From IMG/VR virus record IMGVR_UViG_3300043410_000581, positions 1 to 55,633 of that record: 55,633 bases of DNA, one strand, 5' to 3'. The stretch's first letter is position 1. Every line of letters starts with the position of its first letter. Source of the stretch: a virus. Its lineage: Duplodnaviria > Caudoviricetes. The translations under genes and the position numbers were made by a program. The notes beneath the pieces were generated by a model. It made no database searches and was not told the DNA's origin. It saw only the letters and a list, made by a program, of their open reading frames with translations. Positions 1 to 10,028 of the stretch are shown one piece after another.

Positions 1-218
1 CGTTATTCTCTTTTGCTGTATGTATCTATTATAATGCCTACCACCGACATTTTACAATAGGAAAGGGGGTTTCGTAACATAATCGTAACATAAGTTCAGA
101 TCGAAGGGGGTCGGCACTTTTCCAGGGTATGGAGAAGGAGCCTTTTACCGTCATGCTCAGGACCCCTGCAGGAAAGAAAGGAATTAAGACCTGCAGGTGT
201 CTTATCCAAACATGTTGA

Positions 219-701
219 CTAGTTGTCTTCGGAAGTTACGTCCTCAACGTCATAGTCCAAGTGCCAAAGGTTCTCACCATAGGCAGAGATGTCAAGACCG
301 TCAACGCTAACGTTGTACGAAATGTCATCCAAGTCTTCGAAGATTGAGACCTCAACGCTACCAGAGAAGTTGATAGTTCCCTGAACAGAGATAGACTTAG
401 TCAGTTCAATCTCCATTGCTTCTGCGAGTTCCTTCAAGAAATCCTCGTCCACGTTGTCGTGGTTTTCAAGGATAAGGTTCTTGACGTTGCTCTTCAATGC
501 TTCGATTGCTGCTTTTGCGTTTACCCAGCGGTCTCGCATAATGTTGTGGTCAGTAATCCAACTGTCTCGCTGTCCAGTCAGGGTTTCGATTTGCTCCTTG
601 AGTTGAGCAAGTACAGGGTGATTAGGGATTACTGTTTCACCAAGTACAAGACTAGCAGGGATAGGGTCAGGTACAAGATTTCCGTTTTCGTCATAAGCCA
701 T
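219..701 (-). CDS. Hypothetical early protein, coiled-coil, acidic C-terminus (160 aa)
   Basis: ORF with GAAAGGAAAA RBS and own promoter at 732-754. Confidence 0.8.
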   Translation of the reverse strand: MAYDENGNLVPDPIPASLVLGETVIPNHPVLAQLKEQIETLTGQRDSWITDHNIMRDRWVNAKAAIEALKSNVKNLILENHDNVDEDFLKELAEAMEIELTKSISVQGTINFSGSVEVSIFEDLDDISYNVSVDGLDISAYGENLWHLDYDVEDVTSEDN

Positions 702-754
702 TATTTTTTCCTTTCGATTGGCTGTGTTTCTATTATAAGGGATACCTACGACAT

Positions 755-1018
755 TTATTCGATGTCGTTGGCAATGCTTTCCAGTTCCTCAATGGTCTTC
801 ACCAGTTCAGCCTGAGCGTCTTCGGTGAGGGTAAGGCAAACAGTTCCAGAAACTGCCTGAGCAGAGATAGCCATAGCAAACTGAGCAAGGGCAGAGAGAA
901 ACTCGTCGCTGTCCACCTCGGTTCGCATAGCGTCAAGACCACCAGCCATCATAGCCACAAAGGGGTTGTCGCAAGCCTCGGTAGCAACCTGCTTCATTCC
1001 AAATGCGATGTCCAACAT
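755..1018 (-). CDS. Hypothetical early protein (87 aa, MLDIAFGMKQ...)
   Basis: Start reassigned to ATG at 1018 behind the RBS; the longer ORF-track start lies inside the promoter. Confidence 0.75.
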   Translation of the reverse strand: MLDIAFGMKQVATEACDNPFVAMMAGGLDAMRTEVDSDEFLSALAQFAMAISAQAVSGTVCLTLTEDAQAELVKTIEELESIANDIE

Positions 1019-1129
1019 AATTTTCCTTTCGTTTGTTGATAGTTCTATTATACAGGTGACCACTGACATTATAGGGATTTGTGGAGCGTTTCGTAAGCTT
1101 CGTAACCTGATCGTTACATTTGGGGGTCG

Positions 1130-1145
1130 GCTCCCCGAAGGGAGC
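1130..1145. terminator. GC hairpin GCTCCC-CGAA-GGGAGC abutting node motif; probable terminator or processing stem
   Basis: Directly after the stop of 1149..1640; similar hairpins at 2283-2295, 3126-3138, 3944-3956. Confidence 0.5.
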
Positions 1146-1148
1146 AGG

Positions 1149-1640
1149 TTACCCTACTACCCCTGGGTCTAGTGTGGTTGCCCATTCCGCAAGGTATTCA
1201 TCAGGGCTAGGCAAATCATCTAAATCGTGTTCAAGAGTGTATCCGCCATAAGTAGAGATAAACTTTTTGGTTTGAAAGTTGAGGGTGTAAACTGCTTCAC
1301 AAAACAATTCGTCATTCTCAAAGTCGCTGGCATCAACTAGGAATAAATCGTTACTATAAGCAACATAGCCTAGAATGTCCGCACAGGTATCACGAGATAG
1401 AGTTGGATAAACTTCACTAACAGGCTGTTCACTAGCGGCTAGTAGTGAGTTGATGTTATCAATCTCTTTATCAGTTAGAAAGTATAGTTTAGGCAACTTA
1501 CTCTCAATAAGTCTGTGGTTCTCTGCGTGGTAGAGAGCAGTAACTCCCTGTCCGCTAGGGTATCCGTCCCATTGTCCGTATTGAGCAACCTTGACTACGC
1601 CATCTCGGTCAATTACCTTGGTTAGATTACGAGTTCCCAT
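1149..1640 (-). CDS. Phage protein of unknown function with MGTR...YxxWDGYP motif (163 aa)
   Basis: Motif recognised from phage hypothetical proteins; RBS and promoter present. Confidence 0.75.
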   Translation of the reverse strand: MGTRNLTKVIDRDGVVKVAQYGQWDGYPSGQGVTALYHAENHRLIESKLPKLYFLTDKEIDNINSLLAASEQPVSEVYPTLSRDTCADILGYVAYSNDLFLVDASDFENDELFCEAVYTLNFQTKKFISTYGGYTLEHDLDDLPSPDEYLAEWATTLDPGVVG

Positions 1641-1690
1641 TAGTGTTTCCTTTCGTTGATAGTCTAATTATACTGGTAGGGTCAGACATT

Positions 1691-1861
1691 TTACTCTACC
1701 GAAACTTCTAGCCATTCCCAAACATCACCATTGATAATGTCTTCATTAGCCATTTGTTTAGCATAGTCAATCATTTCATCTTCAGTCATGTCTTCAAACA
1801 ATTCTGCGTGGTCTTCTTCAGGGTAGTATTCAAATCTAAGACTAACAGTAATCTTTTCCAT
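1691..1861 (-). CDS. Highly acidic small protein (56 aa, MEKITVSLRFEYYPEEDHAELFED...)
   Basis: Manual translation; TAATG coupling to upstream gene; stop abuts next promoter. Confidence 0.7.
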   Translation of the reverse strand: MEKITVSLRFEYYPEEDHAELFEDMTEDEMIDYAKQMANEDIINGDVWEWLEVSVE

Positions 1862-2073
1862 TACTCATACTCACTTTCGATTTCGTTTACAAAGTCATCA
1901 TCACCATCAAGGATAGCGATAGCGTATTCCATCTTCATTGAATCTGGCAGGGAATCAAGGATATCCCATTGCTTATTGGTCAGGGCATCAGTATCAAAAG
2001 TAATGGTATCCTCACAGGCAGAGAACGAACCATCACCAGAGATGTAAGCCTTACGGCTGTGGAAATCATACAT
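1861..2073 (-). CDS. Highly acidic small protein (70 aa)
   Basis: ORF track; TAATG overlaps at both ends. Confidence 0.75.
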   Translation of the reverse strand: MYDFHSRKAYISGDGSFSACEDTITFDTDALTNKQWDILDSLPDSMKMEYAIAILDGDDDFVNEIESEYE

Positions 2074-2174
2074 TAGTATCCTGCTTTCTCAAAAATGTCT
2101 AGTAGTTCATCTAGGGTTGATTCTGGTAGGGTGTCCAGAACATCTTGGTCAATGACATCAGCAAAGAGTTTCAT
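2073..2174 (-). CDS. Acidic peptide (33 aa, MKLFADVIDQDVLDTLPESTLDELLDIFEKAGY)
   Basis: Manual translation; RBS and promoter at 2199-2221. Confidence 0.7.
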   Translation of the reverse strand: MKLFADVIDQDVLDTLPESTLDELLDIFEKAGY

Positions 2175-2305
2175 TGTTTTCCTTTCGTTTATAGTTCCAT
2201 TATACATTAGGGGTCTGACATTATAGGGATTTGGGAAAGGTTTTTTAATATCGTAACCTGGTAGGCAGCTGGTGGGGTCGGCACCCCGAAGGGGTAGCCA
2301 AAGGG

Positions 2306-3022
2306 CTACTTTTTACTAGCAGAGAACAGAATGTCATTCCTAGCAAAAACACACTGTGAGCAAGTAACGCAAGCACTACCCTTTTCAGTAATCATAGCAA
2401 TCTTGCGATTGTTTTCAGGGCAAGGGACAGCAGACTTTTCCTGTTGCTCGTTGAAGTCTGCCTTACCAGTAGCAAAATCCTTAGCAAGATAAGCAAGTTT
2501 TACGCCATAGATACGCTTCAATTCCCAAGCAAGAACCTTGTTAGCAGAATCAGCAGAGAAATACAGAGCAAGGTTAGGAATGTTTACCAAGATAGGCACA
2601 GCAAAGTCTGAACGAGTGTATGCCCAGAATTGAACATCAGGGTTTAGACGGATAACAAATGCCCAAGCCCTAGCATAGTCCTCACTAAAGAAGTCGCCAT
2701 CCCAGTGGATACGGAATAACTTTTCCGCATTACGCTTTTCGCAATCTGCCTTGAAGTCTTGAATCATCTCGTCAATCAGAGCAATCATTCCGAGAGTATC
2801 AGTAGCCAGTAGTTGCTCATAGTTGCTAACCAATACTTGACGAACACCCTTGAACACCTTTTCAAGTTTTCCAGCATAGCAGATAGTCTCACAGACAGAG
2901 GTAGCCCCAGGGCAGGAATAAGCCTTACCACTAGGCAAGCCAAAAGTGTTAGCGATAGAGGCTTGAGTGCCAGCCTTGTTTACAGCGTTAGCAACTTTAC
3001 GGTCTTTAGAGCGAGTGAGCAT
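2306..3022 (-). CDS. Gp88-like (radical-SAM-related Fe-S) phage protein (238 aa)
   Basis: CPGATSVCETICYA cysteine triad, RIHWDGDF and YTRS motifs, C-terminal CP...CxxCxxC; start reassigned to ATG 3022 behind RBS. Confidence 0.7.
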   Translation of the reverse strand: MLTRSKDRKVANAVNKAGTQASIANTFGLPSGKAYSCPGATSVCETICYAGKLEKVFKGVRQVLVSNYEQLLATDTLGMIALIDEMIQDFKADCEKRNAEKLFRIHWDGDFFSEDYARAWAFVIRLNPDVQFWAYTRSDFAVPILVNIPNLALYFSADSANKVLAWELKRIYGVKLAYLAKDFATGKADFNEQQEKSAVPCPENNRKIAMITEKGSACVTCSQCVFARNDILFSASKK

Positions 3023-3142
3023 TTGGTTTCCTTTTCTTGATAATACAATTATACACCTGACCACTGACATTTTAGGGAACATCTTAAACGTGTCGTAAGT
3101 CGATCTTGCAGCTAGGGGGTCGGCTCCCCCTGTGGGGGTAGA

Positions 3143-3265
3143 CTAGAGGAAGTCTATGATGTCACCATCAAATCTAGCGTCATCAAGATAGTCTTGCAAC
3201 TCAAGATAACTAATCTCTCCCTTGGCTGCTTGGTCAAACAATTCTTGGATGTATGCTTCGTCCAT
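3143..3265 (-). CDS. Acidic peptide (40 aa, MDEAYIQELFDQAAKGEISYLELQDYLDDARFDGDIIDFL)
   Basis: Manual translation; TGATG coupling. Confidence 0.7.
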   Translation of the reverse strand: MDEAYIQELFDQAAKGEISYLELQDYLDDARFDGDIIDFL

Positions 3266-3636
3266 CAGTCTTCCTCTTCCTCTAGAATTTCAAAGGTGAA
3301 CAACGCACCCATTTCGTCATGTGAACGGCGAACGACATTGAAAGTATTTTCTTCAGGGTCAAAGTCAAACTCAAGGCTGAAGTCACCATTCAAGACTAAC
3401 TTGTCAAGGATAGTTGCTGGAGTTGCCATTGCGTATCCTGAAACATGGTTCCAATTCATGTTGGTTCCGTTTATCTTGATAGGCTGAGTGTCATCAACAT
3501 TGTTCTTGGTCTGCCATTCACCAATTAGCCATGACACATCTTCTTTCTGCCATTCCCAGCAGTCGCCATAGCAGTTGAGTTCAACGCCATCTTCATCTTC
3601 TCCGCAAACACAGTTGCTTTCAATAATTGCTTTCAT
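3265..3636 (-). CDS. Acidic hypothetical protein with N-terminal Cys cluster (123 aa)
   Basis: ORF track; RBS and promoter at 3659-3681. Confidence 0.8.
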   Translation of the reverse strand: MKAIIESNCVCGEDEDGVELNCYGDCWEWQKEDVSWLIGEWQTKNNVDDTQPIKINGTNMNWNHVSGYAMATPATILDKLVLNGDFSLEFDFDPEENTFNVVRRSHDEMGALFTFEILEEEED

Positions 3637-3680
3637 GGTTTTCCTTTCCTAGGGTTCAATTATACAGGCAGGGTATGACA

Positions 3681-3851
3681 TTATAGGGATTCGTTGATAG
3701 CCTTGCGAATGTTGGCAGACCTAGTGCCTTTTCGGTGTTCAGGAACAACGATAGTGTGCTTGGTGAGCAATAGGTTTTTGAACAACTCAGCAGAGTGAGC
3801 CTTGCGAGTAGCCTCAGCAAGTTTGTTTAGTGGTTTCTTTCTTTTCTTCAT
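3681..3851 (-). CDS. Basic small protein (56 aa, MKKRKKPLNK...), probably leaderless
   Basis: ATG 6 nt downstream of the TATAAT of the 3858 promoter. Confidence 0.7.
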   Translation of the reverse strand: MKKRKKPLNKLAEATRKAHSAELFKNLLLTKHTIVVPEHRKGTRSANIRKAINESL

Positions 3852-3960
3852 AGTCCTATTATACATCAACCCTCCGACATTTAACAGGGTTTTGGGAAAT
3901 ATTTTTTAAGGTTTTTAATGTCGATCTTGCCGAGAGCCGCCGACCCCCGAAGGGGGCTGA

Positions 3961-4077
3961 TTAGCCTACTGACTTTGCTACTCGCTCAACCTGTTCTGGT
4001 GTTGCGATAGCAAAGAAAGCCTTAGCAAGAGTTTCGTAGTCAGCGATTTCCTCAAGTTTGCCAAATGAGATTTCCAT
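3961..4077 (-). CDS. Small protein (38 aa, MEISFGKLEEIADYETLAKAFFAIATPEQVERVAKSVG)
   Basis: Manual translation; GAAAGGAAC RBS. Confidence 0.7.
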   Translation of the reverse strand: MEISFGKLEEIADYETLAKAFFAIATPEQVERVAKSVG

Positions 4078-4088
4078 TGTGTTCCTTT

Positions 4089-4271
4089 CTAGGCGAAGCG
4101 TGGGTCAAGCAGGTCTGGGCGGAAGTGGGACAGCAGGGTGGCGTAGTCGCTAATCTGTTTCATACGAGGGTCAACCTCATCATCCTCAGTAGAGGCACGA
4201 CCACCTTTCAGGACAGCCTCCATCTCGTCCATTAGGCGAGAGCATTCAACTGACATTGCTTCGAAGTCCAT
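4089..4271 (-). CDS. Hypothetical protein (60 aa, MDFEAMSVEC...)
   Basis: Start reassigned behind RBS; promoter at 4297-4319. Confidence 0.7.
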   Translation of the reverse strand: MDFEAMSVECSRLMDEMEAVLKGGRASTEDDEVDPRMKQISDYATLLSHFRPDLLDPRFA

Positions 4272-4398
4272 TGGGTTTCCTTTCGTTGATAAGACTATTA
4301 TACAACGAGCCACTGACATTTTACAAGAGGATTTGGGGAAAATCGGGATCTTTTTTAATGCTTTCGTAACTAGATCCAGAGCTGGGCGGTCGGCTCCC

Positions 4399-4429
4399 TG
4401 TGGATAACTTGGGGGGTAGCTGTGGATAA
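4399..4429. promoter_or_regulatory. Pair of perfect DnaA boxes (TGTGGATAA); second lies in the loop of a GGGGGGTAG/CTACCCCCC hairpin
   Basis: Boxes at 4399-4407 and 4421-4429 (reverse complement of TTATCCACA); hairpin 4411-4438. Confidence 0.8.
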
Positions 4430-4451
4430 CTACCCCCCCTCACCATACCTG

Positions 4452-4679
4452 TTAGGCTACTACATACTTAGTAGCAACCTCACTAGGGCGAGCAATGACC
4501 TGCGACCATTCCTCTGGCTTTCCGTCCTCAAGACGAACAGCGTAGCCAACATAGGCTTCGTTAGGCTGGATACCCTGACCAAGACGAGCCTTGATACCAA
4601 CAGGGGCATCAACCTGCTCAACAACCTTGCCAACATACTTGTTGTCGTGGGTCTTGATAGTCATTCCGATAAGGTTCAT
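4452..4679 (-). CDS. Small beta-rich (possibly SH3-like) protein (75 aa)
   Basis: ORF track; fold is a guess from the sequence pattern. Confidence 0.7.
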   Translation of the reverse strand: MNLIGMTIKTHDNKYVGKVVEQVDAPVGIKARLGQGIQPNEAYVGYAVRLEDGKPEEWSQVIARPSEVATKYVVA

Positions 4680-4797
4680 TTATTTCTCTTTTCTTTATTA
4701 GGGGTTGATACTGACTTATTTGCTAGGGGTTTTATTTGCTCTTGCGAGGCTCACACCTGCTAGGCTCATTCAGTATCTCTGTTTTGTTTATATTTAT

Positions 4798-4826
4798 ATT
4801 TTACAGGCTAGTTAGTGATTTGTCAA
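4798..4826 (-). promoter_or_regulatory. Canonical sigma70/SigA promoter TTGACA-17-TAAAAT
   Basis: TGTCAA at 4821-4826 and ATTTTA at 4798-4803 on plus strand; GACACGCCGTA immediately upstream. Confidence 0.75.
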
Positions 4827-4859
4827 GGCGACACGCCGTAGTTTCCAAAACTTTTTTAT

Positions 4860-5003
4860 TTATTTTTGGTGTTCTTCAGTAAAGGTGAAGTATCCCTCAC
4901 GCTTGCTAGGGACTTTGTGAAAACGCTTAAGCTTTCCATACAGATTAGGGGCAAGCACACCAAGACCATTACACTCTGGACAAGGGGTTAGATTATCAAA
5001 CAT
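4860..5003 (-). CDS. Small CxxC protein (47 aa, MFDNLTPCPECNG...)
   Basis: Start reassigned behind RBS; promoter at 5029-5051. Confidence 0.7.
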   Translation of the reverse strand: MFDNLTPCPECNGLGVLAPNLYGKLKRFHKVPSKREGYFTFTEEHQK

Positions 5004-5051
5004 TTCTTTCCTTTTCTTTTCTAAGTCTATTATAGCGTGACCCTCTGACAT

Positions 5052-5174
5052 TTAACCTTTGACTTTTGCGTCTGGGTGGTCTTTGAGAAACTTTGTCAAG
5101 TCAAGAATGTGGATTGCCGAAACAACCTTAGAGCCGTTTTCTAGTGAGTATTCGAATAGGGTGTACTTGCTCAT
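5052..5174 (-). CDS. Small protein, paralog A1 (40 aa, MSKYTLFEYSLENGSKVVSAIHILDLTKFLKDHPDAKVKG)
   Basis: Manual translation; RBS and promoter; paralog at 5765-5884. Confidence 0.85.
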   Translation of the reverse strand: MSKYTLFEYSLENGSKVVSAIHILDLTKFLKDHPDAKVKG

Positions 5175-5288
5175 TTGTGTTTTCCTTTTCTTCTTTATGT
5201 ATTCATTATAGCAAGGGGGTACGACATTTTAGGTACGACACGCCGTAAATCTGGAAAGTTTTTTCTTATCGTAACCAATTTGTTATAA

Positions 5289-5304
5289 TCGAACATTTGT
5301 TCGA
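5289..5304. promoter_or_regulatory. LexA (SOS) box TCGAAC-N4-GTTCGA
   Basis: Perfect match to the actinobacterial/Gram-positive SOS box consensus. Confidence 0.8.
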
Positions 5305-5317
5305 AAACGCCGACCCC

Positions 5318-5347
5318 TGTGGATAACTTTCGATCAGCTGTGGATAA
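5318..5347. promoter_or_regulatory. Pair of perfect DnaA boxes
   Basis: TGTGGATAA at 5318-5326 and 5339-5347. Confidence 0.8.
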
Positions 5348-5473
5348 CTAGAAGGGTATGTTATCTCGCTCTGCCTGGCGGTATCCAATTCCCTTAGCAA
5401 CTTTATAAGTAGTAAAAACAAGAATGATGTCCACAAGCAAGTTGAAGCCATTGTAGAAAATAATTTCGTTCAT
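5348..5473 (-). CDS. Small membrane peptide (41 aa) ending ...ERDNIPF
   Basis: Manual translation MNEIIFYNGFNLLVDIILVFTTYKVAKGIGYRQAERDNIPF; AAGGAG RBS and TAATG coupling. Confidence 0.7.
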   Translation of the reverse strand: MNEIIFYNGFNLLVDIILVFTTYKVAKGIGYRQAERDNIPF

Positions 5474-5625
5474 TAGTTAGTCTCCTTTAGGTATTCCAAA
5501 AAGTCATAGGTTTCACTTGCTTCGGTTAGGGTCATTAGTCCCTTATAGTCCTGGCATTCAGGGCATACCATTACGCTAGGGTTGTAGATGTTTTCACAAA
5601 ATACACAAACTCGTTCTTCGTTCAT
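5473..5625 (-). CDS. Zinc-ribbon protein (50 aa, CVFC-x10-CPEC)
   Basis: Manual translation; TAATG coupling. Confidence 0.75.
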   Translation of the reverse strand: MNEERVCVFCENIYNPSVMVCPECQDYKGLMTLTEASETYDFLEYLKETN

Positions 5626-5714
5626 TATTTACCTTCCTTCTTTTCGGCTTCCAATTTGATGGCGTTCTCACGAACAATTTGAGCCATCATTGCTTTTAGT
5701 TGCTTTTCGTTCAT
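5625..5714 (-). CDS. Small helical peptide (29 aa, MNEKQLKAMMAQIVRENAIKLEAEKKEGK)
   Basis: RBS and promoter at 5741-5763. Confidence 0.65.
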   Translation of the reverse strand: MNEKQLKAMMAQIVRENAIKLEAEKKEGK

Positions 5715-5764
5715 TTGATTTTCCTTTTCTATCTAAGATTAGTTTAGCACTACCCTACGACATT

Positions 5765-5884
5765 TTACTGCTTGACTTTTGCGTCAGGGTGTTCACGAAG
5801 AAACTTGCCAAGGTCAAGAATGTGAATGGCAGAAACAACCTGCTTGCCATTGAAGTCGTATTCGAATAGTGTATATTTGCTCAT
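5765..5884 (-). CDS. Small protein, paralog A2 (39 aa, MSKYTLFEYDFNGKQVVSAIHILDLGKFLREHPDAKVKQ)
   Basis: Manual translation; RBS and promoter. Confidence 0.85.
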   Translation of the reverse strand: MSKYTLFEYDFNGKQVVSAIHILDLGKFLREHPDAKVKQ

Positions 5885-5934
5885 TTGATTTTCCTTTTCT
5901 TTATAAATCTAGTTTAGCATAGGGGTCAGACATT

Positions 5935-6060
5935 TTAGCAAGTGTGAGTTGCTATTGCCTGTTCCAATTCAGCGATAGTTTTGCCCATCTCAAACTTTCC
6001 ACAAGTCTCGCAATCGGTTGACTCATAGAATCTGTCGTTCCAGTGGTTTGTGACTTTCAT
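5935..6060 (-). CDS. Small putative Zn-binding protein (41 aa, CxxC...HxC)
   Basis: Manual translation MKVTNHWNDRFYESTDCETCGK...THTC; RBS present. Confidence 0.7.
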   Translation of the reverse strand: MKVTNHWNDRFYESTDCETCGKFEMGKTIAELEQAIATHTC

Positions 6061-6173
6061 CTTTTTCCTTTCTATCTATAACTATCTAATCATACATTAT
6101 TGGGTTTGTCAATAGCAAAACACCTTTTGTTACCATTTCGTTATAATTGGGGATCGATCTTGTGCTACGTAAA

Positions 6174-6189
6174 TCGAACAAATGTTCGA
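6174..6189. promoter_or_regulatory. LexA (SOS) box TCGAAC-N4-GTTCGA
   Basis: Second perfect copy, again directly before the node motif and DnaA boxes. Confidence 0.8.
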
Positions 6190-6202
6190 AGGGGTCGGCT
6201 CC

Positions 6203-6223
6203 TGTGGATAACTCTGTGGATAA
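6203..6223. promoter_or_regulatory. Pair of perfect DnaA boxes
   Basis: TGTGGATAA at 6203-6211 and 6215-6223. Confidence 0.8.
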
Positions 6224-6247
6224 GTCAGAGTCGATCCGCCAGGGTAG

Positions 6248-6370
6248 TTACTTAGCCAACTTTTTACTAAGGGCAAGCAATTCCTCAAATTCAGTCATAG
6301 ACATAAACTCATCTCCCTTAGCAATTCGCATAAGTTCGTTGTATCGAATTTTCATTTCGTTCTTGCTCAT
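6248..6370 (-). CDS. Small protein, paralog B1 (40 aa, MSKNEMKIRYNELMRIAKGDEFMSMTEFEELLALSKKLAK)
   Basis: Manual translation; paralog at 7433-7555. Confidence 0.85.
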   Translation of the reverse strand: MSKNEMKIRYNELMRIAKGDEFMSMTEFEELLALSKKLAK

Positions 6371-6435
6371 TTTATTTTCCTTTACTGATTAGCCAGAATG
6401 ATTACTAAGATTATGATACCAAAGACCACAGACAT

Positions 6436-6636
6436 TTATTCCTGCTCATTTCCCCAAAGGCGAACAATGAGAACAACGGAAAAGATGATGAAGCCAAATC
6501 CACCAATTAGGAACGGAAACATTCCAAGACCCTCAAGACCAGTCTTGCCAATTTCATCAAGACCAGACTTAGCAATGAAGAAGAAGATGGTGGCGAGGGT
6601 AGTGATGATGATGTTACGCTTGATAGTTACAGACAT
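6436..6636 (-). CDS. Two-TM membrane protein (66 aa, MSVTIKRNIII...)
   Basis: Start reassigned behind RBS; two hydrophobic segments. Confidence 0.75.
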   Translation of the reverse strand: MSVTIKRNIIITTLATIFFFIAKSGLDEIGKTGLEGLGMFPFLIGGFGFIIFSVVLIVRLWGNEQE

Positions 6637-6688
6637 TAGATTTTCCTTTTCTTTTGATAGTTTGATTTTAGCAGATACCACTGACATT

Positions 6689-6898
6689 TTAGGCAGACAT
6701 TCCAAGTTCTGCCCTAGTCTTTTCACCATTCCAAAGTTGAGCAACGAATACGCCAACCTGTTCATCAGTGTATTCAGTCTGGCTAGCAAGCAGGGTAGCG
6801 TAGTATTCTTCATCACGCTTGATAGCAGAAGCGTCATCACTGAATGGGGCAGTCCAAGTGTCTAGTTTTGCTTCGATTAGTTTTGGTAGAATGTTCAT
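6689..6898 (-). CDS. Hypothetical protein (69 aa)
   Basis: ORF track; RBS; dual promoter (TTGACA-18-TATAAT overlapping TGTC-N12-TATAAT) at 6925-6954. Confidence 0.75.
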   Translation of the reverse strand: MNILPKLIEAKLDTWTAPFSDDASAIKRDEEYYATLLASQTEYTDEQVGVFVAQLWNGEKTRAELGMSA

Positions 6899-7040
6899 TT
6901 TGTTTTCCTTTTCTCTATACCTATATTATAAGCACAGCCTAAGACATTTGTCAAGTATATTTAGAAAAATAATTATAACGAATTTGGGGAAAATCGTTAT
7001 CAAACTTAACTTGACAAAAGCTTGAAAAGGTGCCGACCCC

Positions 7041-7061
7041 TGTGGATAAGTCTGTGGATAA
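7041..7061. promoter_or_regulatory. Pair of perfect DnaA boxes
   Basis: TGTGGATAA at 7041-7049 and 7053-7061. Confidence 0.8.
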
Positions 7062-7169
7062 CTACTTACCCCATTCCTTTATCATCTCAACCTGGAGACC
7101 TAGCAATTCTTCTGCAGACATTGTCTCAATATCTTTAGAACCATTAGCCGAAATAATTTGAATTCCCAT
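7062..7169 (-). CDS. Small protein (35 aa, MGIQIISANGSKDIETMSAEELLGLQVEMIKEWGK)
   Basis: Manual translation; RBS and promoter at 7194-7215. Confidence 0.65.
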   Translation of the reverse strand: MGIQIISANGSKDIETMSAEELLGLQVEMIKEWGK

Positions 7170-7294
7170 TTTATTACCTTTCGTTATATAAGTACTTTAG
7201 CATTACCCTCTGACAGTGGAGGGTATCGATCGGGGTAGTTATTGGATAAACATCCAAACAGCCAACAGACAAAACATTACAGCAACAACCTCCA

Positions 7295-7432
7295 TTAGAA
7301 CACCAGTCCCCAACCCATGATTAGACCCTTTTCATAGAGACCTTTGTAGAAATTACGAACAGCGTCTTTATGCTCAGGGTCAAAAGAATAGTCAATTTGC
7401 TTACCGTCTAGAGTGATGATTTCAATAGTCAT
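7295..7432 (-). CDS. Small protein (45 aa, MTIEIITLDGKQIDYSFDPEHK...)
   Basis: Manual translation; follows the B2 stop directly. Confidence 0.7.
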   Translation of the reverse strand: MTIEIITLDGKQIDYSFDPEHKDAVRNFYKGLYEKGLIMGWGLVF

Positions 7433-7555
7433 TTACTTACCCAACTTCTTTGATAGTGCCAATAGTTCTTCGAACTCGGTCATGCTCATGTAGTCATCGC
7501 CCTTAGCGATACGCATTAGTTCGTTATAGCGAGACTTCATTTCTAGAGTAGTCAT
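7433..7555 (-). CDS. Small protein, paralog B2 (40 aa, MTTLEMKSRYNELMRIAKGDDYMSMTEFEELLALSKKLGK)
   Basis: Manual translation; RBS and promoter. Confidence 0.85.
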   Translation of the reverse strand: MTTLEMKSRYNELMRIAKGDDYMSMTEFEELLALSKKLGK

Positions 7556-7606
7556 TGTTTTCCTTTTCTTTATATGATTAGTTTAGCATGGGGGTATGAC
7601 ATTGAA

Positions 7607-7780
7607 CTACATCTTAGCGTAGCCAATGCTGTATCCGTATTTCCATCCTGCTATTGAGGGGTGGCTAACAATAGCCTTTACCTCTGCCTCAGTAGTAGCA
7701 GAGAACTTGTGAACAGAGAACGAAACACCATCCTCACGAGAGCCTCGCTTGGTGATGATTACTGTGTTGAATTCGAACAT
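7607..7780 (-). CDS. Small protein (57 aa, MFEFNTVIITKRGSREDG...)
   Basis: Manual translation; RBS and promoter at 7806-7828. Confidence 0.7.
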   Translation of the reverse strand: MFEFNTVIITKRGSREDGVSFSVHKFSATTEAEVKAIVSHPSIAGWKYGYSIGYAKM

Positions 7781-7831
7781 TTATTTTTCCTTTCTTTATG
7801 TATTTAGTTTAGCACTAGGGGCAGACATTTA

Positions 7832-7924
7832 TTACTTTTTTAGCAACTTAGCAATGTCAGTGCTAAAGTTTGCCCACACTACTACTACTACTGATACTAC
7901 TACAATTACTACTACTTCAAACAT
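7832..7924 (-). CDS. Poly-Val single-TM peptide (30 aa, MFEVVVIVVVSVVVVVWANFSTDIAKLLKK)
   Basis: GTA-repeat-encoded TM segment; RBS and promoter at 7952-7974. Confidence 0.65.
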   Translation of the reverse strand: MFEVVVIVVVSVVVVVWANFSTDIAKLLKK

Positions 7925-8123
7925 TTTCTTTTCCTTTTCCTTTATGTATCTATTATAAGCACAAGGGCAGACATTACGCAAGTCAAGACACGCCGTATTT
8001 GATAACAAATTGATAACGTTAGGGGGTGTGTAGTGTCCGCACTATTTATTTGGTTTTGTTGTTTTAAATGTACGCATCGTACATCTATTCAAAATATTCA
8101 GATTTTGTCAAACTCAAATTTTT

Positions 8124-8459
8124 TCAGATTTTTGCCAGGTACAAAATTAACAAATATGTCAACGCATGAAGAAGCTGATCTGCACCAAAGTAAATCCAAT
8201 ACATACGATCTGCCTGTGTGAGATTCTTTGATAGCTTTGTCTTGATGTAATCCACATTGTGATGAATAGCAAAATCTAAGCAAGCGAGGGTAGCTGCAAG
8301 AGACAAAGGCATAAACCACATAAGAACAGTAAGGGTAAATACCATATGAATAAGAGAATGGTCTAGATAAAGGTATTTTTGCTTATGTTTAGCCATATAG
8401 TTTGTCTGAAATACAAAATCTGCGAGGTAATGCTTAACAAAAAGTAACATTAACATCAT
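8124..8459 (-). CDS. DUF3307-family membrane protein
   Basis: HYLADFVFQT...H..IH...HxxVDYxK...GADQLLH pattern. Confidence 0.8.
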   Translation of the reverse strand: MMLMLLFVKHYLADFVFQTNYMAKHKQKYLYLDHSLIHMVFTLTVLMWFMPLSLAATLACLDFAIHHNVDYIKTKLSKNLTQADRMYWIYFGADQLLHALTYLLILYLAKI

Positions 8460-8893
8460 TTTTCATCCTTACTGTCCATCTGCTCTTTGATCAGCTTCTC
8501 CGTCTGCTTCTTGACCTTAGCTCTAGGATTAGCCATAAGCACACAGCACTTACAAAACTGCTTTTCTAGGTGGGTAACACCAAATTGTTTCATCATTCTC
8601 CTAGTAAATATTTGACGGTAGCCATAAAAATAGCCATAAATGTTGGAATAGCAACAACAGCAAGCAATAAAACAACTATTTTACGGACCATGCTTATGCC
8701 ATTCTTCATCATCTCCACAAATAGCACAGACGCTATCGTTGTATGCATCGAAATCATTTGGTTCACCTACGTCTGAAAACTTGTTAACAGTCCATTTAAT
8801 GACAAAACCAACAGTAACAACAACAATAATTGCTGGGATTACGTAAATTAACGTAAAGAAAAAGATTAAAAGTAAAAAGAATACAAATTCCAT
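8456..8893 (-). CDS. Three small coupled ORFs (8681-8893 70 aa TM; 8593-8691 32 aa TM; 8456-8593 45 aa)
   Basis: Manual translation; overlapping starts and stops leading into the DUF3307 gene. Confidence 0.55.
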
Positions 8894-9120
8894 GTCTCTC
8901 CTATGGTAGGTTTTAAGTATAGCATAAAATTTTGGGGTACACAAGAGCGAAGCTCTCTTGATGAACTTATAAGCAAAACACCCATTAGCCTATAAAGAAA
9001 CTATTTTAGTATAACAAAACCCTATATTTGCTTATATGTTCATTTTAGACCATAGTAGAGTTCGTCGGATATAGTTTAAATCGCTTCTAGGGGCATCTGA
9101 GGGCTTCCTGGAAGGTGTTT

Positions 9121-9354
9121 TGTAACCGATCGTACACATTAGAAAATGTAACCGAACGTACACAAAGTTAAAGCAGAACATATTCGTCATTAAAGCCTGT
9201 AATGGAGGATATCTTATGCATTACACTGCAATGTTTTATATCTGTTTATTGCATTAGACTGCAATATTTATCCATATGGCTACGTTAGTAGCATGTTTGG
9301 ATGTGGGGTTCTCTATATCACGCCGACCTCTTTACCGCCGAGTTTTTACCGCCG
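9121..9354. repeat. Three families of short direct repeats in non-coding DNA
   Basis: TGTAACCGA(T/A)CGTACACA at 9121 and 9147; TGCATTA(C/G)ACTGCAAT at 9217 and 9250; TTTACCGCCG at 9331 and 9345. Confidence 0.75.
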
Positions 9355-9407
9355 TGCTTTATAACAGAAATGTAACAACTTAAAAAATAATGTATAATAG
9401 AAATATT

Positions 9408-9701
9408 ATGGATTTGCAAACCCTAGTCGCTATCATTGTCAGTATTAGTACTGTCCTGTCAACACTGGTTGTTGGTGTACGCTGGCTAGTCAAGCATTAT
9501 TTTGATGACATCAAGCACGAGCTAAAGCCTAATAGTGGTTTATCAATGAAAGATCAGGTAAACAGAATGGAAAAGGATATCCTAGCTATTAAATCAGAAA
9601 ACGTCAGAGGCGAAGAAGCTCATGCAAGACTAGATAATAAAATAGATCATCTAACTCAGATGTTTGTAGAGTATGTAGCACATCAGAATGCAAAGAAGTA
9701 A
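9408..9701 (+). CDS. N-terminal TM plus coiled-coil protein (holin-like or membrane protein)
   Basis: MDLQTLVAIIVSISTVLSTLVVGVRWLVK; start 9 nt after TATAAT. Confidence 0.65.
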   Translation: MDLQTLVAIIVSISTVLSTLVVGVRWLVKHYFDDIKHELKPNSGLSMKDQVNRMEKDILAIKSENVRGEEAHARLDNKIDHLTQMFVEYVAHQNAKK

Positions 9702-9945
9702 GAACCCCTAAATAAAAAAACAATCGTCAAGCATTGACTTGGCGATTATTATTTATTATTATTATATATAAACTATATATCTTATAAGTTATATATCTTA
9801 TATATTTATATATAGTCTTTTGCCCCCTACCCCCATATTTATATATAATAGCACATCTAAAAACTTTGTCAAGACCTTTTTAAGTAAATTTTATATAACG
9901 ATCTTGTAACTTTGATATTTCAGGCTGATATGATATACTATTAGT

Positions 9946-9999
9946 GGCTAGATCTGAATGTCTCTCTCATACCCACCTTTCAGGTCTAGCCTTTCTATT
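9946..9999 (+). ncRNA. Candidate small hairpin RNA with own extended -10 promoter
   Basis: TGATATACT at 9931; 13-bp stem GGCTAGATCTGAA/TTCAGGTCTAGCC; 20-nt pyrimidine-rich loop; T-rich tail. Confidence 0.4.
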
Positions 10000-10028
10000 T
10001 ATATAATCTGTGATATAATTTAAGTACT

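Follow-up and report, generated by a model that had tools for sequence, protein, structure and literature searches.

The left end of a virus of the Caudoviricetes, represented by IMG/VR record IMGVR_UViG_3300043410_000581, raises the question of what a series of compact intergenic nodes does between the small genes of an early array. The window referred to throughout is the whole of that record (55,633 bp; GC content, 41%). A first-pass annotation of the same DNA had described nine periodic nodes packed with host regulator sites and had proposed that they form a sponge sequestering several host regulators at once, with protein-bound roadblocks between transcription units among its alternatives. 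The nine-node observation was borne out. The GC-rich word GGGGTCGGC was found in eight exact copies against 0.07 expected, a number reached in 0 of 100 shuffles, at 107, 1123, 2274, 3116 and 6191 on the plus strand and at 3939, 5309 and 7032 on the minus strand, and the node at 4386 carries a one-mismatch variant, GCGGTCGGC, as the ninth copy. The consensus DnaA boxes and the perfect SOS boxes of the window all lie in these nodes. The reading that we favour, and to which we give about an even chance, is that the nodes act in cis as boundary and control cassettes of an early, probably first-injected gene array. It is favoured because the parts of a node keep a set order with respect to stop codons and promoters, because they carry RNA hairpins for which DnaA-box pairs substitute, and because there is one such pair per boundary.

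The window is estimated to be ~52% complete and is without end repeats. Its tape-measure region matches Streptomyces phages of a 127-135-kb group, and the gene at 2306-3082 belongs to the Pfam family GP88, with similar genes in Streptomyces and Mycobacterium phages. A protein search with GP88 yielded 30 loci (L numbers below), of which 17 were low-GC (0.38-0.44) close relatives, and whole-genome comparisons were made between the window and five related genomes, G001 to G005, one of which (G002) is a circularly closed assembly of 94,680 bp. WhiB genes were detected in 4/4 of the more complete relatives; the control search was positive only in Corynebacterium among 14 genomes. Because of the Streptomyces and Mycobacterium phage kin, the WhiB genes, and SOS boxes that match a published motif, the actinobacterial host supposed in the first-pass annotation was upheld, and a low-GC actinobacterium is predicted. 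The sequencing runs that hold window sequence are freshwater and wastewater metagenomes, and no near-identical sequence turned up in the phage collection when it was searched with the first 8 kb. The best explanation is a roughly 95-kb lytic-type phage on low-GC freshwater actinobacteria, related to Stanwilliamsviridae.

Every gene in 1-8000 was found on the minus strand, with its own promoter and ribosome-binding site, and the order of sites in a node is therefore to be read leftward. The early array (219-7924) comprises ~25 small genes of 29 to 238 aa, including the GP88-family gene, in cassettes separated by the nodes, each node lying past one stop codon and ahead of the next promoter. Read on the coding strand, the order is stop codon, hairpin or tandem DnaA pair, word, optional LexA box, then 11-bp-phased RTAAC repeats and/or GATC, followed by promoter, ribosome-binding site and start codon. 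Hairpins occupy nodes 2 to 5 and DnaA pairs nodes 6 to 9, with both in node 6. The common leftward direction of the genes and the occurrence of the word on either strand (6:3 over the nine nodes) had escaped the first-pass annotation, and its description of the nodes as periodic is only loosely correct, with spacings of 447 to 1151 bp in the window and 269 to 2811 bp in relatives. Node spacing varies and is therefore set by cassette size rather than by a fixed period; strict periodicity was set aside on the same range in relatives.

The first-pass annotation had also expected core motif and spacing to persist in related phages, but it is the place of the word that persists and not its sequence or spacing. 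The GGGGTCGGC core is not kept in relatives, each lineage having its own over-represented GC-rich word in the same place: GGGTACC in L010, GGTCGGC in L011, TGCGCCC in L013, GGGCGCCCC in L015, GGTCGGGC in L016, GTGCGCCC in L017, GCGGCGCC in both L021 and L022, GGCCGGG in L024, and TTTT-TTGGGCAA-AAAA in L037. The word also differed from lineage to lineage at the orthologs of the node past the GP88 stop codon, and contigs of co-occurring strains, with flanks sharing at least 85% identity with the window, carried other words (GGGGCGCA and GGGCCC) in between. Orientation was mixed in relatives as well (5:6 in L011 and 7:5 in L037). The words are confined to the early region. All 10 copies of GGTCGGC in the window lie within 109-9322, and all 14 in G002 lie in a 13.5-kb arc, with none in the other 81 kb. 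In G001, 14 of the 15 copies of GGTACC fall in a 16-kb region, where composition predicts ~15 spread genome-wide, and the early arrays of G004 and G005 hold 17/17 copies of GGCGCC and of CCGGCC, respectively.

GC-rich hairpins with 4-nt loops were counted over 17 loci. On the coding strand, 13 had the loop TTCG, 13 GAAA, 12 GTAA and 3 GCAA, and hairpins with the complementary loops numbered 0, 0, 3 and 0, a total of 41 sense versus 3. Because UUCG and GNRA tetraloops are thus confined nearly to the sense strand, the node hairpins appear to act as RNA on the leftward transcripts. The first-pass annotation was therefore correct in placing hairpins in nodes 2 to 5, but not in treating them as GC hairpins in DNA. 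In node 2 (1091-1148; this and all other nodes are read on the minus strand), GTAAC/GTTAC repeats (1091-1117) and a GATC (1109) accompany the word (1123-1131, plus strand), and the hairpin GCUCCC-UUCG-GGGAGC (1130-1145 on the mRNA strand; -16.8 kcal/mol, z -0.74) stands directly past the stop of the gene at 1149-1640. Node 3 (2252-2309) has the word at 2274-2282 (plus strand), no GATC, and two hairpins, CCCC-UUCG-GGGG and GUAGCC-CUUU-GGCUAC (2283-2309), that overlap the stop of the GP88-family gene. Node 4 (3093-3142), after the stop of the gene at 3143-3265, has a GATC at 3102, the word at 3116-3124 (plus strand) and a hairpin at 3115-3138 that can be drawn as CCCCC-ACA-GGGGG or GGGGG-AGCCGA-CCCCC, with weak thermodynamic support (z +0.35). 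Node 5 (3923-3960), after the gene at 3961-4077, has a GATC at 3923 and carries the word as a minus-strand copy (3939-3947) and the hairpin CCCCC-UUCG-GGGGG (3944-3956).

In nodes 6 to 9, DnaA-box pairs take the place next to the stop codon. All eight copies of TGTGGATAA in the window (0.53 expected) lie in these nodes, in four pairs on one strand that read as TTATCCACA on the coding strand. Nodes 8 and 9 have spacers of 3 bp, and nodes 6 and 7 spacers of 12 to 13 bp. For eight pairs (in the window, L010, L011, L013 and L037), the first box was found directly past the TAG stop of the upstream open reading frame (ORF). Consensus DnaA boxes, usually paired, were present in 17/17 low-GC relatives, and 31 of 48 DnaA-box clusters in 16 loci lay within 8 bp of the lineage's word, a zone that chance would allot to 2-7% of positions. 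Extra DnaA pairs were found at both borders of the array in G001. Gain and loss were evident at the orthologous boundary after the gene at 6248-6370, which carries a DnaA pair, word and LexA box in the window, only the word and RTAAC repeats in L011, and nothing in L010.

Node 6 (4347-4451), which follows the gene at 4452-4679 and has a counterpart in L011, contains two GATC sites (4347 and 4373), the variant word (4386-4394), DnaA boxes at 4399-4407 and 4421-4429 with a 13-bp spacer, and a 9-bp stem, GGGGGGUAG/CUACCCCCC (4411-4438; -28.6 kcal/mol, z -1.84), with one DnaA box in its loop. In node 7 (5266-5350), GTAACC-N5-GTTATA (5270-5289) is followed by a perfect SOS box (5289-5304), the word as a minus-strand copy (5309-5317) and DnaA boxes at 5318-5326 and 5339-5347, whose 12-bp spacer includes a GATC (5332); the TAG stop of the gene at 5348-5473 abuts the pair. 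Node 8 (6123-6247), after the gene at 6248-6370, holds an RTAAC repeat at 6129, GATC at 6152, 6156 and 6233, a perfect SOS box (6174-6189), the word (6191-6199, plus strand) and DnaA boxes at 6203-6211 and 6215-6223 with a 3-bp spacer. Node 9 (6947-7064) has no GATC; it comprises a TGTCAA/TTGACA dyad (6947-7018), the word as a minus-strand copy (7032-7040) and DnaA boxes at 7041-7049 and 7053-7061, again 3 bp apart and abutted by the TAG stop of the gene at 7062-7169. The spacer at 7216-7294 is node-like but has no word; it contains a GATC (7228) and a box in degenerate form, TTATTGGATAAAC.

The density of host-regulator-type sites claimed for the nodes was likewise supported, with matches to DnaA, LexA, MtrA-like and PafBC-type motifs. 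The SOS-box sequence TCGAAC-N4-GTTCGA occurs in only two perfect copies, in node 7 and node 8, and the other 3/5 SOS-box matches in the window have two mismatches each and lie outside nodes. These two boxes are perfect versions of the Streptomyces venezuelae LexA motif, given as tCGAAC-N4-GNNCGa (PMC9380542). Strict LexA boxes were found in 3/17 low-GC relatives, with 0 to 2 per relative. By eye, an antisense TGnTATAAT directly precedes the SOS box of node 7. The 11 GATC sites in 1-7300 all fall between genes; three that had been scored as coding lie inside an ORF at 6130-6276, which overlaps node 8 and is regarded as spurious. Strict RTAAC repeats with an 11-bp period number five in the window (0.9 expected), none of them outside 1-9900, and are not present in every node. 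The likeness of RTAAC to GTTRRRY suggested attC-like sites of integrons, an idea that was set aside. The layout of these repeats resembles that of MtrA half-sites, described as two 5-6-bp direct repeats 5 bp apart (PMC5650626).

The nodes lead into promoters that are mostly of the PafBC type. A motif scan found 20 early promoters of the form TGTC-N12-TAnnnT on the minus strand of 28-7973, with TGTC starting at 49, 753, 1068, 1688, 2220, 3069, 3680, 3879, 4318, 5050, 5226, 5762, 5932, 6434, 6686, 6946, 7215, 7601, 7827 and 7973. The spacer was exactly 12 nt in 20/20, and shuffled sequences gave 2.3 such promoters on average and 9 at most. A ribosome-binding site and start codon came next, within 25 to 45 nt, in 18/20. 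In all 20, GTC falls at -27 to -25 without a -35 element, which is the geometry of the "-26 element" of PafBC "sigma adaptation" promoters, reported to combine GTC at -27 to -25 with a canonical -10 and no -35 (PMC8635444). A few canonical TTGACA-N17-TAnnnT promoters stand among them, near 4800 and near 6080, and the latter, TTGACA-N17-TTAGAT, is the next promoter downstream of node 8. Long 5' leaders after canonical promoters carry two to four copies of a GAGCCTAGCAAATAA-like repeat, which is kept across relatives (4680-4800 on the minus strand of the window; 3740-3800 and 4640-4720 in L021; also L013, L037 and L039) and may be an RNA operator.

Node 1 (60-218) has CGTAAC-N5-CGTAAC at 73-89, a GATC at 99, the word at 107-115 (plus strand) and a non-coding element of ~100 nt (116-218, minus strand) 3' of the gene at 219-701. 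The element has a core CCTGAGCATG..AAAAGGCTC and was found in at least 10 relatives, directly before each relative's own word. It folds with a z of -1.9 against shuffles and is a candidate small RNA or structured 3' end; an Rfam scan of 1-10000 at an E value of ≤1 assigned no family to the region, including this element.

Other observations concern the cassettes and their surroundings. Mini-genes of 39-41 aa form two paralogous pairs whose members belong to different cassettes, at 5052-5174/5765-5884, which share ~80% DNA identity, and at 6248-6370/7433-7555; they suggest cassette duplication. Contigs of co-occurring strains from four metagenome runs, compared over 1-8000, join distant cassettes or replace cassettes at promoter and node repeats (for example, 5934 to 6917, 4895 to 6125, and 1641 to 7784). 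Assembly-graph effects are possible at such joints, which would reflect either population mosaicism or assembly at repeats. The region at 8900-9400, where the leftward early array and the rightward late genes diverge, is a control region with two copies of TGTAACCGANCGTACACA (9123-9165), the tenth GCCGACC copy at 9322 and RTAAC-N6-RTAAC at 9361.

The early array is homologous to the terminal repeats of two cultured Streptomyces phages, Jay2Jay (L009) and Coruscant (L064). In the records of Jay2Jay and its kin, the GP88-type gene occurs in two places, ~5 kb from the end, and therefore lies inside the terminal repeat. The intergenic regions of the Jay2Jay repeat consist, on the coding strand, of a UUCG hairpin, CCCGGACA and a promoter; all 26 copies of CCCGGACA lie in the terminal repeats, 13 in each, and the intervening 112 kb has none. 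In Coruscant, UUCG hairpins are succeeded by a 13-bp palindrome, GGCGCC(S)GGCGCC (GCGCCSGGCGCC), which stands in 15 places in each direct terminal repeat and in none between the repeats. A TAGATG-N6-CATCTA dyad follows the Coruscant word. The 12-kb repeat of Coruscant is reported to have been determined experimentally, from read termini and 2-fold coverage (PMC7650747). Because the repeats of both phages have words and are without the boxes, punctuation by hairpin and word is probably shared across the family and linked to the terminal repeat, and the host-regulator boxes would be an addition of the low-GC freshwater lineage.

The palindromes of the array also point to a first-injected character. 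The early ORFs of the window contain 107 4-bp palindromes against 321 expected, and the rest of the window contains 2276 against 2960. Such depletion, which affects most 4-bp palindromes, is known for first-injected phage DNA and is taken here as context rather than proof; together with the homology to terminal repeats, it is consistent with an array that is probably first injected. CCGG, GGCC, GCGC and CGCG are absent from the whole window, where ~100 of each are expected, and they are nearly absent from all six genomes compared (0 versus 85-172 expected each). The exceptions lie inside the boundary words of G004, with 20 GCGC in the array and 8 outside (114 expected), and of G005, with 20 CCGG in the array and 1 outside (108 expected).

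The word thus behaves like the target of a precise, sequence-specific reader of double-stranded DNA, since it is exact within each genome, switched between relatives, used in either orientation, often palindromic, and kept despite the purge of its tetramers elsewhere. A reader was sought by comparing all ORFs of the window and G001 to G005 against each other for proteins common to G002 and G003, which share a word, and divergent or absent in G001. Profile searches of five genomes found ParB_N in 0/5 and a C5 DNA methylase in 0/5, and no reader candidate emerged from these comparisons. Two other interpretations of the words were set aside. Chi-like sites do not fit several palindromic words with a fixed place beside hairpins and boxes and none elsewhere, and RNA-level elements of the nut or boxB kind do not fit a word that flips strand.

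In the favoured reading, a node would close the upstream unit either with a UUCG- or GNRA-tetraloop RNA hairpin, as a terminator or 3'-end stabiliser, or with a tandem high-affinity DnaA-box pair instead, at which bound host DnaA would form a roadblock or boundary complex. One lineage-specific GC-rich word per node would be read as double-stranded DNA by a sequence-specific factor. Optional operator-like sites for host regulators, namely, a LexA box and the MtrA-like 11-bp-phased repeats, would follow, and the node would lead into the next promoter, mostly of the PafBC type without a -35 element. Nodes would in this way keep neighbouring cassettes insulated and tie early phage transcription to DnaA, LexA and PafBC as host regulators of DNA status. 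Among the functions considered in the first-pass annotation, the protein-bound roadblock between transcription units fits best. The data establish the anatomy of the nodes and its conservation, the strand bias of the hairpins, and a word that is lineage-specific and confined to the early array or terminal repeat; the binding of host proteins, the roadblocking and the first injection are what we infer.

Several findings weigh against this reading. About half of the 20 early promoters have no upstream node, and nodes are therefore not needed at every unit. In L015 to L024, the unit of word and DnaA pair is inverted relative to transcription and stands behind a TTGACA element rather than at a stop, so the orientation that a polar roadblock would need is not conserved. 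The LexA boxes lie ~75 to 110 nt upstream of the next sense promoter, unlike a classical operator, which would overlap the regulated promoter or stand just past it, and the flipping of the word between strands is unlike the behavior of orientation-dependent stoperators. The folding energies of the hairpins in nodes 2 to 5 were no better than those of shuffles (z -1.0 to +0.35), so that their reality rests on the strand bias of loop types, and the node hairpins are without U-tracts. Ten reader candidates, compared against Pfam, gave only DUF932 and dCMP deaminase and no DNA-binding family. Finally, the repeats of Jay2Jay and Coruscant contain no consensus DnaA or LexA boxes, and the DnaA part is therefore not generalisable to the family.

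A sponge would have the boxes act mainly in trans, titrating DnaA (and LexA) on DNA that enters first and is later amplified, with the outcome that host initiation is blocked and the SOS response is triggered or blunted. Eight perfect, paired boxes of the high-affinity type would suit such a function, and E. coli DnaA is reported to prefer pairs (PMC11317965). The presence of boxes in all the low-GC relatives, an array carried twice per genome if it is a terminal repeat, and probable hosts with small genomes, as judged from the freshwater metagenome sources, point the same way. A pure sponge, however, needs no layout in which one pair stands at each boundary in a fixed relation to word, stop and promoter. 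There are only two LexA boxes here and 0 to 2 in relatives, and boxes turn over at orthologous boundaries in close relatives and are missing from the cultured ones. As the main role of the nodes, sequestration of several regulators is therefore unlikely, for the trans effect and for its outcome alike. The parallel with T5 that accompanied the sponge proposal is apt with regard to paired DnaA boxes (10.1101/866236) and leads to another explanation, in which the pairs hold incoming terminal-repeat DNA, for example on membrane-bound DnaA, and genome transfer is paused or staged until early proteins are made. DnaA boxes paired at 3 bp are described in the first-step-transfer repeat of 25 T5-like phages (10.1101/866236), and the 3-bp spacing of nodes 8 and 9, the eight boxes in four pairs, the palindrome-purged array, its homology to the terminal repeats of cultured relatives, and the pairs at both array borders in G001 agree with it. 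The mechanism in T5 is itself only a proposal, though, and the pairs here are dispersed over 2.7 kb at gene boundaries and not gathered in one untranslated inverted-repeat block; moreover, cultured relatives with terminal repeats have no boxes, and G002 assembles as a circle. Staged entry of this kind seems rather improbable.

Another possibility is that the DNA is nicked or broken at the words in a programmed way, or that a nuclease or recombinase docks there, with the terminal repeat as the only place where such sites occur. Single-stranded DNA arising from breaks between self-sufficient cassettes would then activate PafBC and, through it, the early promoters; the breaks could also serve recombination between repeats and cassette shuffling. 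Words resemble restriction sites, with GGTACC, GGCGCC, GGGCCC and GGCGCC(S)GGCGCC as palindromes, those of G004 and G005 include tetramers of which the genome is otherwise nearly free, and the words are lacking in other regions. Single-stranded DNA is reported to activate PafBC (PMC11804915), site-specific nicks are described in T5-type phages (PMC10644984), and contigs of co-occurring strains join different cassettes at node boundaries. The lack of any C5-methylase or ParB_N match in the five genomes, the possibility that the joints are assembly-graph effects, and a window word that is not palindromic nevertheless make this very unlikely, both for the sites as such and for the consequences drawn from them. 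A broader version, in which the words dock or cut for a phage factor in the terminal repeat and, with the adjoining DnaA, stage entry, expose single-stranded DNA and trip PafBC, would be a long shot of slightly better standing; if it were true, host sensors of DNA damage and replication would be the ignition switch that fires ~20 early promoters. Replication origins have also been considered, because tandem DnaA boxes with a GC-rich spacer resemble the basal unwinding system of oriC, described as tandem boxes ≤3 bp apart followed by a GC-rich stretch and three or more DnaA-trios (PMC8287927). Against an origin stand at least four separate pairs at gene boundaries, a unit found in both orientations, and a LexA box or T-rich spacer after the word; inspection by eye, without a formal scan, showed no DnaA-trio run past the word. 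The boxes of T5 are reported not to be its origin (10.1101/866236), and an origin function here is scarcely credible.

Should the favoured reading of cis-acting boundary cassettes hold, paired DnaA boxes and a LexA site would be present in the early, probably first-injected array of an actinophage lineage unrelated to T5. A recurrent design would be suggested, with a bearing on the old question of what the T5 boxes do. A word that is exact within each genome, switched between close relatives and missing from other parts of the genome would point to a precise and fast-evolving recognition system. The layout of hairpin plus word in the terminal repeats of Jay2Jay and Coruscant is new here and strictly confined to the repeats, and since both phages are cultured, it is the part of the puzzle that can be tested at the bench. 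A literature search, which covered no supplementary files, found no published account of DnaA boxes or node features in actinophages, and the text of the Coruscant paper (PMC7650747) does not contain the words "motif," "promoter" or "terminator."

Among known systems, the nodes match T5 boxes, PeSL cassettes, stoperators and PafBC promoters each in part and none fully. In E. coli, the datA locus titrates or inactivates DnaA by means of DnaA boxes clustered compactly with an IHF site; the boxes here differ in being dispersed in four pairs. PeSL (promoter-early stem-loop) cassettes, composite terminator/promoter units of T4-type phages (PMC4122927), resemble nodes 2 to 5 in that a stem-loop and an early promoter are repeated between small variable early ORFs. 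Cassettes may be exchanged at the repeats here too, to judge from contig joints and from gain and loss of genes at orthologous nodes, with recombination as such suggested by the joints only and assembly artefacts possible. The nodes differ in being longer, in carrying host-regulator boxes and a word, and in leading into early promoters of the PafBC rather than the sigma-70 type. Stoperators of cluster A mycobacteriophages (PMC6550527, PMC9283540) are similar as an exact lineage-specific word in 10 to 17 intergenic copies whose consensus differs between related phages and whose bound protein could plausibly stop transcription. As described there, stoperators are asymmetric 13-bp sites, distributed genome-wide, mostly in one orientation relative to transcription, and read by the lysogeny repressor, which blocks elongation, whereas the words here are 6 to 13 bp long, often palindromic, in both orientations, restricted to the early array or terminal repeat, and found in apparently lytic phages.

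PafBC (RecA-NDp) promoters of mycobacteria and other actinobacteria share the canonical -10, the missing -35 and the GTC at -27 to -25 (PMC8635444, PMC6789036). The promoters in the window differ in being phage borne, and dependence on PafBC is putative, as a phage-encoded factor could read the same element. The closest parallel for the DnaA pairs is the "iss" region in the left terminal repeat of T5 (10.1101/866236), with which the array has in common consensus boxes in pairs, eight per array, the 3-bp spacers of nodes 8 and 9, and small early genes that would here, too, be terminally repeated and first injected. The T5 pairs are described as lying in large inverted repeats, IRC/IRD and IRD'/IRC', in one untranslated region. 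The window, in contrast, has its pairs at four separate boundaries (4399-7061) with no large inverted repeat bracketing them, two of the four are spaced at 12 to 13 bp, each is fused to a lineage-specific word, and the host is a predicted actinobacterium. The likeness to the T5 boxes is one of convergence, with no homology implied.

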